Notes: a model not told the origin generated them from the letters alone. Shown: positions 25,214 to 30,154, counted from the first letter of the stretch. The stretch: 64,000 bases of DNA from a virus (IMGVR_UViG_3300024999_000044:1-64000), one strand, 5' to 3'. Made by a program: numbers and translations.

Positions 25214-25576
25214 GTGAGCAAGATTAAACTGGAGGATTCCTTTATGGACATCATGGTGAAGATGGGCGAGGGCAATCATGATGCTATCACTTGTCTGGTA
25301 GAAATGAACATGAAGAAAGATTGGTACGCTGGGATTGATGGTGCAATGCTGGTATTGTACTGTGACACTCTTGAGTTGTACGGATCTAAGTTGTACATGC
25401 TGTGGAATGACTGCTGTGGTAGGGACCTTAACAAGATGGAACTAGTGTTGCGTAACTGGAAGATGGGTAAGCTATCTAAGGAGGCCATCCATGCCAACCT
25501 AGACAAAGGTAGAGGCACACCATTTGAAGGGTTACTTACTTTAGAGGAATTATTCGATAAGGGGGATGACATATAA
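25214..25576 (+). CDS. hypothetical protein
   Basis: GTG start after a GAGGAGG RBS; an ATG at 25244 is also plausible. Inside track ORF 25157-25576. Confidence 0.4.
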   Translation: MSKIKLEDSFMDIMVKMGEGNHDAITCLVEMNMKKDWYAGIDGAMLVLYCDTLELYGSKLYMLWNDCCGRDLNKMELVLRNWKMGKLSKEAIHANLDKGRGTPFEGLLTLEELFDKGDDI

Positions 25577-26061
25577 TGTTATGTGAAGATATAACCTCGG
25601 CAGAATGTGCTAGAAAAGGGTACTCGTGCTATTGTAATAGCTGCCAATATCACAGAACTAAGGGATGTTCTATAACCAGAGAAAATACCTGCCCCTTATT
25701 TGGGTGCCCCGAGCATAAAGCTGAGACACCCGTTGAGATCCAGCATAAGGTCTTGCAAGACAATGTCCCGGTAGTGTTTCTAGCGTATAACTTAGATGCT
25801 GGTGCTCGCCCAGATGAGGCATATCTGGTGTATGGCCTAGACGACCCGGTTCACCTGGAAAACCTTATTGAGGAGTACAATACTGATACATGTGATGAGT
25901 GTGAGGGGCGGGAGTGTAACACTTGCACTAAGAAGGATACTAGCTCTCACATTTCTCATCTAAAGAGTAAAGGACATTTAGTCACCAAATTACTGGGTAT
26001 CATAGTATCAGAGTGTGGAGACACTTCTACTGCCCAGATGTGTGATGCGGAGGAAGAATAA
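25576..26061 (+). CDS. Cys-rich family member 1, with a long C-terminal extension
   Basis: MLCEDITSAECARKGYSCYCNSCQY…CPLFGCPEHK. Confidence 0.55.
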   Translation: MLCEDITSAECARKGYSCYCNSCQYHRTKGCSITRENTCPLFGCPEHKAETPVEIQHKVLQDNVPVVFLAYNLDAGARPDEAYLVYGLDDPVHLENLIEEYNTDTCDECEGRECNTCTKKDTSSHISHLKSKGHLVTKLLGIIVSECGDTSTAQMCDAEEE

Positions 26062-26063
26062 AC

Positions 26064-26252
26064 ATGCTGTGTAATGATGTTTTTGCGGAAGAGTGCAGCA
26101 ATAAGGGTTACTTTTGTAGGTGTTTATGGTGCAGTTACTACAAGGGGATGAGGGAATGCCCCTTAACCGGAGTGGATACTTGCCCCATGCATGGGTGCCC
26201 TAAGTATCCATTAGTCAAACCATCAATGGAAGCGGAGGATAATGATGAGTAG
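26064..26252 (+). CDS. Cys-rich family member 2
   Basis: MLCNDVFAEECSNKGYFCRCLWCSYY…CPMHGCPKYP. Confidence 0.55.
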   Translation: MLCNDVFAEECSNKGYFCRCLWCSYYKGMRECPLTGVDTCPMHGCPKYPLVKPSMEAEDNDE

Positions 26253-26460
26253 ATTTTGTGACAATGTTGAAGTATCTCTCTGTAAAGAGCATGAATGTAA
26301 GTGTCCCGGATGCAACCTCCTGCCTACCAGGATAGGGGGAGAAGGGTGCAAGTGTTGCCCGCTATTTGGGTGTGCTAAGCACCCAGCCACAGTATCCAAT
26401 CTAATACCTCTGGTGGAGCCTGACAAGGACTTAGATGCCATGGCATGGTACCGGAGGTGA
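26242..26460 (+). CDS. Cys-rich family member 3
   Basis: …CKEHECKCPGCNLL…CCPLFGCAKHP. Confidence 0.5.
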   Translation: MMSRFCDNVEVSLCKEHECKCPGCNLLPTRIGGEGCKCCPLFGCAKHPATVSNLIPLVEPDKDLDAMAWYRR

Positions 26461-26478
26461 CCAACAGTGAAATTTAAG

Positions 26479-26640
26479 ATGTGTGAGGACGTCCCTAAAA
26501 ATGAATGCAATGACAAGGGGCACCCGTGTTGGTGTTTACGTTGTAAAGAGCTGCTAAACTGCATGTCGCTGTTTAATGGAAACACTTCATGCTCCATGTA
26601 TGGATGTCCGGTAGAAATGGGTAGGGTATTTAATTCATAG
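26479..26640 (+). CDS. Cys-rich family member 4, 53 aa, missing from the ORF track
   Basis: MCEDVPKNECNDKGHPCWCLRCKEL…CSMYGCPVEM. Confidence 0.45.
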   Translation: MCEDVPKNECNDKGHPCWCLRCKELLNCMSLFNGNTSCSMYGCPVEMGRVFNS

Positions 26641-26652
26641 GGGTGGTTAAAG

Positions 26653-26853
26653 GTGGGTAGGTCTTGTAACTCCGTTAGTGGTGAAGAGTGTAGCATTGCG
26701 CTAGGAGACAGAACTTGCCCATGTGTTGAGTGTGACTGGGGTAGTGTTAAAGTTAGCCCAGGTGAGTGTGCTAATATAGAATCAGGTACTTGTCCCCTAT
26801 ACGGTTGCCCCAAGCATGAGGCCATATTAAAGGAGGAAAACACTGTTGAGTAA
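26653..26853 (+). CDS. Cys-rich family member 5
   Basis: …CPCVECDWG…CPLYGCPKHE. Confidence 0.55.
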   Translation: MGRSCNSVSGEECSIALGDRTCPCVECDWGSVKVSPGECANIESGTCPLYGCPKHEAILKEENTVE

Positions 26854-26854
26854 A

Positions 26855-27901: not shown

Positions 27902-28105
27902 ACTCCAGTTTGCTGTAAAGAAGGGTGTTTAGACAATGGCCACAAGGGAACTAATAATCGGAGTAGCAGTAATAATTAGTTGCAGTATAACTGTTACCCT
28001 CTTGCTCTCTGGCTTTATGGATTTGTTTGTGAATAAAAAGTGAACCCCAGTTTGCTATAAAGAGGAGTGCCCACTTTTGGGCACTCCTCTAGCACGTGGG
28101 GTTAC

Positions 28106-28134
28106 TTGACTTTTCCTCCAAGGTGTGAGATAAT
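28106..28134 (+). promoter_or_regulatory. sigma-A-type promoter, family copy
   Basis: GTTACTTGACTTTTCCTCCAAGGTGTGAGATAAT, near-identical to the copy at 27434. Confidence 0.65.
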
Positions 28135-28184
28135 TAATCATGCCCCGAAGGTCTGGGCTAAAAGAATATAGGAGGTATACATTA

Positions 28185-28496
28185 ATGGAGCACATGTCTG
28201 TAAGTTTCACTAGGGATATCATGACAGGATACAAGTACTGCATCCATCCATCTTGGGGGTATGCTGGTATTGAGGTCGATATTGTAAAGGTAACTGGTAT
28301 CTTTGACTATGATTATGTGTGCATAGAGGATGGAGTAGTGGCTTTTATGGATGCAGCACTACAGGGTGATGAAGACCTTGGTAGAGAGCCGGAAGCTAGC
28401 TTAAAAGGTCAAGTGTGGATTCGGTATCAGTATGATGATGGTGAGACGTGTTACTTACCCTTAGAGGTCTTTGCTAATCATATCTCACAGTGTTAG
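28185..28496 (+). CDS. hypothetical protein
   Basis: Start at MEHMSVSF after TATAGGAGGTATACATTAATG, inside track ORF 28140-28496. Confidence 0.5.
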   Translation: MEHMSVSFTRDIMTGYKYCIHPSWGYAGIEVDIVKVTGIFDYDYVCIEDGVVAFMDAALQGDEDLGREPEASLKGQVWIRYQYDDGETCYLPLEVFANHISQC

Positions 28497-28748
28497 GGGG
28501 CCTTGTTGATTGTTTGCTGAACATTTTGTGAGTAAGTCTACACCCACTGCTTCATGCCCTCTATGTGATGCTGGGCATCCAAGCACTCTCAAGAAGATGC
28601 TGCCAACTTTTGATGTTAGTAGTGTCATAGTTCCTCCAAGGTATGGGCGTTATGATACTAAGCGGTTGCGTAAGAAATGGGCCAAACTACGTGGAAAAGT
28701 AACTGTGTACATGGGATGTTCTGTGGTAGGTGTAAAGGAGGACACAGA

Positions 28749-28937
28749 GTGAGAAAACTATGTTTAGAAGTCCCATTAGAGGCATGTATTACTAAAGACT
28801 ACACATGTCTTTGTATGGGTTGCTGTAACGTGTTACCTAGTGGATGTAATGCCACACCCACTAAAGAGGTGTATTGCCCACTATATGGTTGCCCTAAGCA
28901 TAAAGCGGATATAGCCGAAGAGGAGGTAGTAAAGTGA
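28749..28937 (+). CDS. Cys-rich family member 8, GTG start
   Basis: AAAGGAGG, 7 nt, GTG: VRKLCLEVPLEACITKDYTCLCMGCC…CPLYGCPKHK. Confidence 0.5.
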   Translation: MRKLCLEVPLEACITKDYTCLCMGCCNVLPSGCNATPTKEVYCPLYGCPKHKADIAEEEVVK

Positions 28938-29296
28938 GAAACTTATCAGTAGTACTAGTAGAACCTGAGGATATAGTTTTAGTAGACTCTATTGTAGCAG
29001 CTACTAATCATTTGCATGTTATGGGTGTGTGTCAGCACACCCTACGTGATGAGTATGAAATACCTTATGGCATTGTTCTTATGCATGAGTCTGATATGGG
29101 TGAGACTGAGGATACTATTGCCATCTGTGAGTTAGCTGGCTTAATGGCTAAGTACATGATAGAGCCTGATATGCTGGATGAGCATGAACATGAGAAACTA
29201 AGTAAACATATCGCTAGCTGGAATGATGGCATCTTTCAATATGGCTCCCAGTGTTACAAAGTAACAGATTTCACTAAGAATAAAGGAGGTAGCTAA
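28934..29296 (+). CDS. hypothetical protein
   Basis: Track ORF. Confidence 0.5.
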   Translation: MRNLSVVLVEPEDIVLVDSIVAATNHLHVMGVCQHTLRDEYEIPYGIVLMHESDMGETEDTIAICELAGLMAKYMIEPDMLDEHEHEKLSKHIASWNDGIFQYGSQCYKVTDFTKNKGGS

Positions 29297-29298
29297 AC

Positions 29299-29718
29299 AT
29301 GCACAACATTGAACTCATTAGTATGGCCCCGCCAGTAACTCAGACTTTAACCTTCACAGTAGTTATTGAGGTAGCTGGAAAGAATGTTGTTGACGTTGCT
29401 TCTATGGAGAAGAACATAGCAGAGGCTATTGACTATTACATGGAGGGAGGTAGCACTATGACTCCTGAAGAGGAGGATAATTGTGCTGTCTCGGTGTGTG
29501 TGGAGTGTATTAAAGGAGATATCAACTTTATGGTGGAACTCCAGGGTAGTATATTCTCTGTGTATGGGAACAATGGTAAGGGTTTTCATATAGCAGCTGA
29601 TAGGATGGTTGAGGCAGGCATCAATATTGATGATGCAGGAGATGTTAAGGATTTCATAATGGAGAACTACGGTGAGGCTTTACAGCGTTATGGGATGGGA
29701 GTGGCTAAAGATGAGTAA
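29299..29718 (+). CDS. hypothetical protein
   Basis: Track ORF. Confidence 0.5.
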   Translation: MHNIELISMAPPVTQTLTFTVVIEVAGKNVVDVASMEKNIAEAIDYYMEGGSTMTPEEEDNCAVSVCVECIKGDINFMVELQGSIFSVYGNNGKGFHIAADRMVEAGINIDDAGDVKDFIMENYGEALQRYGMGVAKDE

Positions 29719-30154
29719 AGTATGTGATGAGGTTACAAATAAAGAGTGTAGTAGTAAGGGATATAACTGCTCATGTGATGGGTGCAGTGAGTATGATACA
29801 ATTAGGTGTGAGTGTGAGGTAACTAAAGTAGACACTTGCCCGCTATACGGGTGCCCTAAGTATCCATTATTAGCCATTGAGATGGAAGAGGGGGAGGTAG
29901 TATTGAATCCTGTTTCAGAGGTATCTGATAATGACTTGCTAGCCCAGGAGTATTTAGATGCTTGTGGGATGTATGTGTGTGGTAGTGATGGTGATGAGTT
30001 TATCATAACTAATGCTCCTAAGGAACTCGTGGATAATGTACTTGCCCTAGAGGTGCCAGAGGACGTAGATGGAGTGGACGTATCGGGATGGTTTGTAGGT
30101 CAGCTTAACGAGCTTGGGTACATTGCGATTGCAAGGGCTTTGCCACTAGAATGA
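29711..30154 (+). CDS. Cys-rich family member 9, with a C-terminal acidic domain
   Basis: Start at MSKVCDEVTNKECSSKGYNCSCDGC…CPLYGCPKYP, inside track ORF 29672-30154. Confidence 0.5.
   Translation: MSKVCDEVTNKECSSKGYNCSCDGCSEYDTIRCECEVTKVDTCPLYGCPKYPLLAIEMEEGEVVLNPVSEVSDNDLLAQEYLDACGMYVCGSDGDEFIITNAPKELVDNVLALEVPEDVDGVDVSGWFVGQLNELGYIAIARALPLE

Follow-up and report, generated by a model that had tools for sequence, protein, structure and literature searches.

Nine tandem genes for eight-cysteine mini-proteins in the predicted early region of an uncultured SPO1-like phage

The small proteins that phages make early in infection have proved a rich source of anti-defence factors and of specific inhibitors of bacterial machines, and most of these proteins are uncharacterised. 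Small, fast-evolving ORFan families are a familiar phenomenon in phage early regions. The host-takeover module of phage SPO1 (gp37-gp60) includes gp44, an RNA-polymerase-binding DNA mimic; gp46, an HU inhibitor; gp53, a ClpCP modulator; and gp56, a cell-division inhibitor. Excerpts from published accounts of individual SPO1 takeover proteins describe one host target each (PMC8208478, PMC8892312, PMC6873191). Here we describe a locus in a 64,000-nucleotide (nt) stretch of viral DNA (IMGVR_UViG_3300024999_000044:1-64000, hereafter the window) in which nine open reading frames (ORFs) on the + strand, at 25576-30154, share one common cysteine-rich module of ~45-55 amino acids (aa), the Cys8 module. 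We consider it about an even call that this family consists of small binders, stabilised by zinc and produced as soon as infection begins, that are aimed at host proteins for takeover or anti-defence. This reading draws on the early-promoter operons, a nearby gp44/gp51 homolog, the acidic character of the proteins, the fusions of the module to other domains, the distinct orthologs that have been kept and the concentration of variation in loops.

At the sequence level, the array resembles the SPO1 takeover module in its small genes, its operons, its TTGACT/TATAAT early promoters of the host sigma-A type, its Herelleviridae genome and its position just downstream of the gp44/gp51 homolog. The two differ in that we found no sequence relationship between them (no protein of the SPO1 module scores above 3.2 bits with the hidden Markov model (HMM) of the family) and in that the SPO1 module has an ordinary Cys content (1.1%) and no paralog array. 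SPO1 gp58 and gp22 of Bacillus phage JL, 4-Cys zinc-ribbon-like mini-proteins of the terminal repeats, are also tiny Cys-rich early ORFs of the same genomic module; unlike the window's proteins, they have two CxxC pairs only, are single-copy, lack the CPLYGC knuckle and show no HMM similarity. The window is part of an uncultured ~142 kb SPO1-like (Herelleviridae) phage, because its terminase large subunit (57627-59291) shares 68-70% identity with those of Bacillus phages JL, CP-51 and SPO1, and because its genes are found again in metagenome assemblies of the groundwater project PRJNA268031, on contigs of ~141.8 kb. A megablast of the region against 50,697 phage records gave no DNA-level similarity to deposited phages.

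Eight cysteines and one glycine are invariant in an alignment of the nine members, which score against the family HMM with expect values (E) of 1e-11 to 1e-22. All 28 distinct members from all sources fit the signature C-x4-8-C-x4-13-C-x-C-x2-3-C-x3-14-C-x2-9-C-(P/S/Y)-x-(Y/F/H)-G-C, mostly followed by P-K-H, with two spacing subtypes, a short type with C6-x2-C7 and a long type with C6-x7-9-C7. An earlier note on this DNA had reported a tandem array of about ten Cys-rich paralogs, with a shared C-terminal motif that it did not recognise as a named family. The array stands, with exactly nine members, and so does the motif: C[PS][LM][YFH]GC is matched nine times in the six-frame translation, every time inside the array block, where 200 shuffles gave 0.005 matches on average. 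The absence of a family name also stood up, as scans of all members against Pfam, PHROGs and NCBIfam returned nothing below E=0.04 and no credible match, and a sequence profile search of the PDB gave chance matches only (E >0.8).

The Cys8 unit is an autonomous domain, because it is fused to three unrelated partners, lying on the N-terminal side in the first and last members (m1 and m9) and on the C-terminal side in a metagenome protein (P0017), and because the m1 partner also occurs alone in a sister phage (phage B; the window phage is phage A), at L002 11316-11690 and L001 15613-15927. The C-terminal extensions of m1 and m9, which the earlier note had picked out, recur on the sister-phage orthologs (162 and 146 aa). 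Within the module, the C-P-L-Y-G-C knuckle and the C-x-C-x2-C cluster appear to form a fixed scaffold, while variation falls in the inter-Cys loops and the acidic tails. The partner domain of m1 at its C-terminus, with its 'AYLVYGL..HLEN' region and CxxC-x4-CxxC cluster, represents a second small domain family.

Small size, many cysteines and tandem paralogs are also features of multi-precursor loci for ribosomally synthesized and post-translationally modified peptides, such as the SCIFF family, so the members could in principle be precursors of modified or secreted bacteriocin-like peptides, or disulfide-knotted exported toxins. We regard this as highly improbable: the module begins at residues 3-8 with no signal or leader peptide, and its fusion to cytoplasmic-looking domains of 85-105 aa argues against processing. 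The interleaved and flanking genes contain no Pfam domain and no recognisable enzyme, maturase or transporter domain, and the neighbours include no radical S-adenosylmethionine enzyme, protease, cyclase or ABC transporter.

The nine members are genuine protein-coding genes, on several lines of comparison. The opposing idea, that the ORFs are by-products of a DNA-level repeat or of a long antisense ORF, draws on a 31-nt repeat that encodes the motif in each member and on a 206-aa ORF on the - strand (26223-26843) that runs across m3-m5 and repeats H-P-Y-x-G, the reverse complement of C-P-L-Y-G-C. Variation within the 31-nt repeat falls at third codon positions of the + frame, however, and all nine members have a Shine-Dalgarno site 6-10 nt 5' of the start. 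Seven of the nine were predicted by independent gene callers in metagenome assemblies. The proportion of nonsynonymous differences (pN, 0.28-0.46) lies below that of synonymous differences (pS, 0.55-0.79) in all six comparable A-B ortholog pairs, and the protein signature is kept at 30-55% identity across phages. Third-position variation, Shine-Dalgarno sites, pN below pS and cross-phage conservation together refute the non-gene explanation, whose probability we put close to nil. The antisense strand falls into short ORFs in phage B, where the 206-aa ORF is not kept open, and this ORF is a shadow of the array.

Shine-Dalgarno spacing makes GTG 26467 the most likely start of m4, in preference to ATG 26479, and favours TTG 26846 over 26855 for m6 and GTG 28749 for m8; the independent metagenome gene callers made the same three choices (P0003, P0007 and P0002). 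The genes are as tightly packed as the earlier note had described, with 4-nt ATGA or GTGA overlaps at m6/m7 and on both sides of m8, overlaps of 8-11 nt at m2/m3, m5/m6 and between m9 and its upstream gene, and gaps of 2-12 nt at the other junctions. Three members are indeed shorter than 60 aa (m4, m6 and m7). The same note had listed a divergent Cys-rich mini-protein at 27731. The ORF exists, at 27732-27902, and is Cys-rich, but it was rejected as a tenth member on a score of -7.9 bits against the family HMM and a lack of DNA homology to the syntenic phage B gene: homology to phage B ends at ~27685, just before this ORF, and phage B has its member B7 there.

Two structural Zn(Cys)4 sites would most simply account for eight invariant cysteines in a leaderless, cytoplasmic protein of ~50 residues, and the cysteines most likely hold two zinc ions. 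We would predict C4, C5, C7 and C8 to form one site and C1, C2, C3 and C6 the other. The zinc ribbon suggested by the earlier note was not supported: only one CxxC is invariant (C4-x2-C5), there are eight ligand candidates rather than four and no profile matched. The other fixed pair is C-x4-C, and a second CxxC (C6-x2-C7) is present in the short type and not in the long. Eukaryotic-type two-zinc domains (CXXC-type, FYVE/RING cross-brace and tesmin CXC) also place eight conserved cysteines in ~50 residues; the terminal C-x4-C of the family is like that of CXXC-type fingers, and C-P-L-Y-G-C-P-K looks like the knuckle with which a C2H2 finger begins. The family differs from these in spacing, in having no downstream H-x3-5-H, in matching no profile and in being acidic rather than basic. 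In a C2H2 finger, H-x3-5-H follows C-x2-5-C at a distance of ~12 residues; here, a single, non-invariant His (K-H) comes after the C-x4-C, and several proteins end within 5-15 residues. The CXXC type (PF02008) has two C-x2-C-x2-C clusters besides C-x4-C and a basic, CpG-binding surface; in the family, C-x-C-x2-C occurs once, no Pfam match appears at E up to 1 and the charge is acidic. Fingers of REF6 align to the family at chance level (E=1.6), and the likeness to eukaryotic-type zinc domains is at most convergent.

Eight cysteines would also suffice for two [4Fe-4S] clusters, and the Cys-Pro pair recalls ferredoxin motifs, so the proteins could carry one or two iron-sulfur clusters as small ferredoxin-like carriers or redox sensors, in a habitat that sample descriptions suggest is an anoxic aquifer. 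We judge this very unlikely: the ferredoxin spacing C-x2-C-x2-C-x3-C-P is absent, with C-x-C-x2-C and C-x4-C in its place; neither Fer4 nor a related Pfam family matches at E up to 1; and nine divergent ferredoxins in an early operon would have no evident rationale.

The array lies in an early-promoter region, as the earlier note had proposed, with a promoter that is present at 24389, at 28106 and, in variant form, at 27434. The promoter consensus, tacTTGACTTTTyC...GTGAtAtAAT, is of the extended -10 sigma-A type (TTGACT-N14-TGnKAWAAT with conserved flanks), to which the SPO1 early promoters also belong. Fifteen exact copies occur in the window, against 0.01 expected, and all are oriented with their genes. 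Early transcription of the array would thus be carried out by the host sigma-A RNA polymerase. Terminator-like hairpins bracket the array (24319-24350 and 30398-30429), and three units can be drawn between them. The unit of the first promoter, P1 (24.5-27.2 kb), comprises two or three small genes and then m1-m7, and reaches to the palindrome at 27200-27221, the probable end of the first operon; that of P2 comprises the gene 27512-27766 and the 27732 ORF. The P3 unit (28185-30154) runs through 28185-28496, 28510-28752, m8, 28934-29296, 29299-29718 and m9 to the hairpin at 30398-30429. We place gene starts at 27512 (84 aa, to 27766) and 28185 because P2 and P3 overlap the ATGs at 27467 and 28140, and both starts agree with metagenome gene calls. 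Across the window, the 15 promoter copies mark an early region of ~36 kb with a divergent switch near 34-36 kb.

The family appears undescribed and is extremely rare. A profile search of 5.8 billion clusters returned nine proteins, seven of them the window's own, and an exhaustive HMMER search of 1.84 billion protein representatives gave 21 matches, of which two are repeat artefacts and the rest true members. Searches of the 50,697 phage records with three members by tblastn yielded no match or chance matches only. We also used a degenerate DNA pattern for CPLYGCPK, which gave one chance match in IMG/VR, five chance matches in GTDB genomes and, in JGI metagenomes, true members only in contigs of the same groundwater site. 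The equivalent region of SPO1, JL and Exiguobacterium phage vB_EalM-132 holds no member, only isolated 4-Cys mini-proteins of another pattern, and a literature search on the motif string or on Cys-rich SPO1 takeover proteins found nothing relevant.

Members occur in three contexts. Phage A and phage B (L002 8105-12134) each have a nine-copy array, a strain of the sister phage has a variant array with an additional member (L021/L031), and all array-bearing contigs that we found come from one groundwater project. In a third phage, from the same site, the module forms the C-terminus of the 132-aa protein P0017; a few genes upstream of it, in the same small-gene block, that phage (L018 7177-8193, L019 1038-2054) encodes GmrSD_N-domain and GGACT-domain proteins. 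The remaining context is a single copy on contigs of otherwise unrelated phages, in a conserved arrangement: the Cys8 gene comes after a family-A DNA polymerase and an ORF of 85-90 aa, and is followed by small ORFs and then a C5 cytosine DNA methylase. Apart from the Cys8 gene, these contigs have essentially nothing in common with the window, and a search beside the single-copy relatives for a partner gene common to the window found none.

Eight-Cys two-zinc domains, such as the CXXC and GATA types, often bind nucleic acids. The paralogs could accordingly be zinc-finger regulators of transcription, replication or DNA modification in the phage or its host, and for such a role one can cite the single-copy relatives between DNA polymerase and C5 DNA methylase, as well as the helix-turn-helix regulator (23467-23853) and gp44-like transcription factor near the array. 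We nevertheless think it unlikely. Members carry net charges of -22 to +1, are mostly acidic and in many cases have acidic tails; apart from Cys, conservation falls on P, L, Y and G, none of them basic; a conserved basic patch is absent; and no nucleic-acid-binding zinc-finger profile of Pfam or NCBIfam matches. Because the members are mostly acidic, we favour a binder over a nucleic-acid ligand, and the partners that they bind would be proteins.

Phages A and B are syntenic, and their flanking proteins are 50-92% identical, as against 41-58% for the best family pairs, whose order also differs. Copy number is nine in both. Six pairs are one-to-one orthologs (m1-B1, m3-B3, m4-B6, m5-B4, m6-B2 and m9-B9, with B1 at L002 8105-8593), and three members per phage are lineage-specific. 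The six orthologs imply that most duplications are older than the A/B split and that the copies have been kept, and their retention argues for non-redundant roles with continuing birth and death.

The six orthologs also bear on metallothionein-like buffering, in which the proteins would act as a sink for zinc, cadmium, copper or other metals in the host of a metal-rich aquifer and copy number would serve as dosage. Like the bacterial metallothioneins SmtA and BmtA, the members are small and Cys-rich (13-16% Cys) and have a C-x-C motif, with little conserved strictly beyond the cysteines, and the restriction of array-bearing contigs to one groundwater project would suit such a role. Stable one-to-one orthologs, however, are not homogenised dosage copies; the conserved P-L-Y-G-C-P-K-H, a conserved G-Y and the aromatics are atypical of metallothioneins; the module is fused to other domains; no metallothionein profile matches; and early promoters beside takeover genes have no obvious tie to metal homeostasis. 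Taken together, these points make buffering quite unlikely.

Rapid diversification, which the earlier note had suspected, found support in faster divergence than in most neighbours, in birth and death and in recombination. Nonsynonymous divergence (dN) between A and B is 0.34-0.70 for family pairs and 0.05-0.47 for flanking genes. Among eight phage B contigs that are otherwise 99.4-100% identical, and with one repeat-affected ORF set aside, we counted 23 single-nucleotide polymorphisms (SNPs) in 2.2 kb of family genes versus ~8 in 9.3 kb of other genes. The changes sit in inter-Cys loops or linkers, and no allele alters a Cys. In one B9 allele, 9 SNPs are crowded into the first 55 nt while the other 386 nt are unchanged, and no gene-conversion donor for this patch is present among the sampled sequences. 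A diversity-generating retroelement was rejected as its source, since the substitutions (T>C, C>T, G>A, T>A and C>A) show no adenine bias and there is no donor repeat, a reverse transcriptase not having been specifically screened for. In strain variants, homology breaks exactly at CPLYGC-coding DNA: in L048 it stops at L002 10164, and in L029 two segments are joined that end at L002 10182 and 11807. These breakpoints, together with inter-paralog DNA matches of 29-57 nt at the CPLYGC-coding motif, suggest recombination between paralogs anchored on the conserved motif DNA.

Two further variants lie in the same phage B data. The ORF at L002 12847-13140 ranges from 57 to 97 aa among near-identical strain contigs, with 26 apparent differences, and this is probably a repeat-length polymorphism. 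In one sister-phage strain variant, the ortholog of P0009 (B4) is split over two frames (L021 519-741 / L031 841-1020), which reflects either a frameshifted pseudogene or an assembly error.

On the binder reading, the nine early genes would be transcribed by the host sigma-A RNA polymerase straight after infection, from three early-promoter copies, and translated as tightly coupled operons. Each paralog would bind a different host protein, thereby shutting off host functions or neutralising defence, as the unrelated small takeover proteins of SPO1 do. In m1, m9 and P0017, where another domain is joined to it, the module would provide binding or act as an adaptor, and the array would evolve by duplication, loss and recombination at the motif-coding DNA. 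The host-takeover or anti-defence role is suggested by location and by analogy. We find the nucleic-acid, metallothionein, iron-sulfur, modified-peptide and non-gene explanations each less consistent with the data than the binder reading.

Several results weigh against this reading. The AlphaFold2 models were too low in confidence to judge the fold: the predicted local distance difference test score is 47.7 for m2 (19-sequence alignment) and 51.2 for m9 (three orthologs), with 32-39 in the Cys module of the latter, and both models are unusable. A Foldseek search of a predicted model against the PDB found no fold match (E >1, template modelling score <0.25). The main caveat is the position of single-copy relatives between family-A DNA polymerase and C5 DNA methylase, on unrelated phage contigs, which speaks for a part in replicating or modifying DNA no less than for one in host takeover. 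Overall dN/dS between A and B is below 1 (roughly 0.2-0.5), hence no demonstration of positive selection, and is of limited use given that synonymous divergence (dS) is saturated; nor do the strain SNPs in family genes, at a synonymous to nonsynonymous ratio of 11:12, give evidence of it. Some other early genes (19654 and 24757) diverge equally fast. The SNP counts are small, and the clustered differences may represent a few recombination events rather than many independent changes.

A more far-reaching and rather unlikely version of the binder reading is that the array serves as a repertoire of zinc-scaffolded mini-binders, a 'knottin-like library' whose loops would be tuned to different host defence or housekeeping proteins, with new specificities arising by paralog recombination at CPLYGC-coding DNA and with the module reused as a targeting domain in m1, m9 and P0017. 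What is new here is a clean, undescribed domain that is defined by its eight-Cys signature and comprises ~28 distinct sequences in two spacing subtypes; a nine-copy array with motif-anchored recombination is unusual. If the members are zinc-stabilised binders with distinct targets, they could provide a compact natural scaffold as well as new takeover or anti-defence activities, and the array could illustrate how a gene family of a phage is diversified by motif-anchored recombination. Ordinary structural zinc mini-proteins, if that is what the members are, would amount to a well-delimited ORFan family of an uncultured phage.

Table 1. Coordinates of the array members, the predicted regulatory elements and related features (window positions unless a contig is named).
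Feature	Position	Strand	Description
m1	25576-26061	+	161 aa, ATG; N-terminal Cys8 module and ~105 aa C-terminal domain with second cluster CxxC-x4-CxxC
m2	26064-26252	+	62 aa, ATG; Cys8 mini-protein; metagenome protein P0001; nearest relative is paralog m9
m3	26242-26460	+	72 aa, ATG (71 if ATG 26245); short type (C6-x2-C7); P0005
m4	26467-26640	+	57 aa, GTG; knuckle variant CSMYGC; P0003; ortholog B6
m5	26653-26853	+	66 aa, GTG; P0004; ortholog B4, identity 55-58%
m6	26846-27016	+	56 aa, TTG; short type; P0007; ortholog B2
m7	27013-27183	+	56 aa, ATG; short type; ATGA overlap with m6; P0006
m8	28749-28937	+	62 aa, GTG; Shine-Dalgarno AAAGGAGG; GTGA overlaps on both sides; P0002
m9	29711-30154	+	147 aa, ATG; Cys8 module and ~85 aa acidic C-terminal domain (net charge -22); orthologs P0028 (B9), P0011
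Mini-ORF	27732-27902	+	56 aa, 9 Cys, perfect Shine-Dalgarno AAGGAGGT; overlaps neighbour by 35 nt; not predicted by metagenome callers
Bidirectional terminator-like hairpin	24319-24350	both	14-bp stem; closes preceding unit, just upstream of P1
Predicted early promoter P1	24389-24417	+	TTGACT-N17-TATAAT with TG extension
Perfect 22-nt palindrome	27200-27221	+	Follows m7 stop codon; read from sequence, not called by terminator scan
Predicted early promoter P2	27434-27462	+	Variant: TCGACT, TG-GATAAT
Predicted early promoter P3	28106-28134	+	Copy of conserved early promoter
Intrinsic-terminator-like hairpin	30398-30429	+	Closes array
Promoter copies	7112, 12440, 16932, 21343, 22085, 24389, 28106, 33995, 34181	+	Conserved pattern
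Promoter copies	36755, 38397, 39221, 40444, 41769, 43215	-	Conserved pattern
Single-copy relatives	L014 2529-4828, L015 1332-3324, L016 646-1260		Contigs of otherwise unrelated phages, other samples

Around the array, the window also encodes a helicase, a ParB-like nuclease and one tRNA-Met. The gp44/gp51 homolog, a 245-aa protein encoded at 22175-22912, 2.7 kb upstream of the array, is related to SPO1 gp51 (47% identity, E=1e-21) and to the SPO1 e3 protein, and its best match is a gene annotated 'similar to gp44'; in SPO1, gp51 and gp44 are host-shutoff proteins, both encoded by the takeover module that lies in the terminal repeat. Its gene contains an internal acidic 42-nt direct repeat (22381-22451), and a second gp51-like gene of phage B lies at L001 18374-18757, on the opposite strand. 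Beyond m9, three tandem 52-nt repeats (30141-30296, 75-87% identical), each with the palindrome TTAGAAAATTCTAA, extend from the m9 stop codon and precede the terminator at 30398-30429; a role in regulation or as protein-binding sites is conceivable.

Other small ORFs lie among these genes. A strongly hydrophobic 35-aa mini-ORF (27936-28043), which metagenome callers do not predict, follows the 27512-27766 gene. Unrelated small Cys-rich early ORFs occur at 24757-25104 (11 Cys in 115 aa), 30527-30814 (8 in 95) and, on the - strand, 47420-47557 (9 in 46), and non-family early genes between 24.7 and 32 kb average 3.6% Cys, versus 0.95% in large ORFs.

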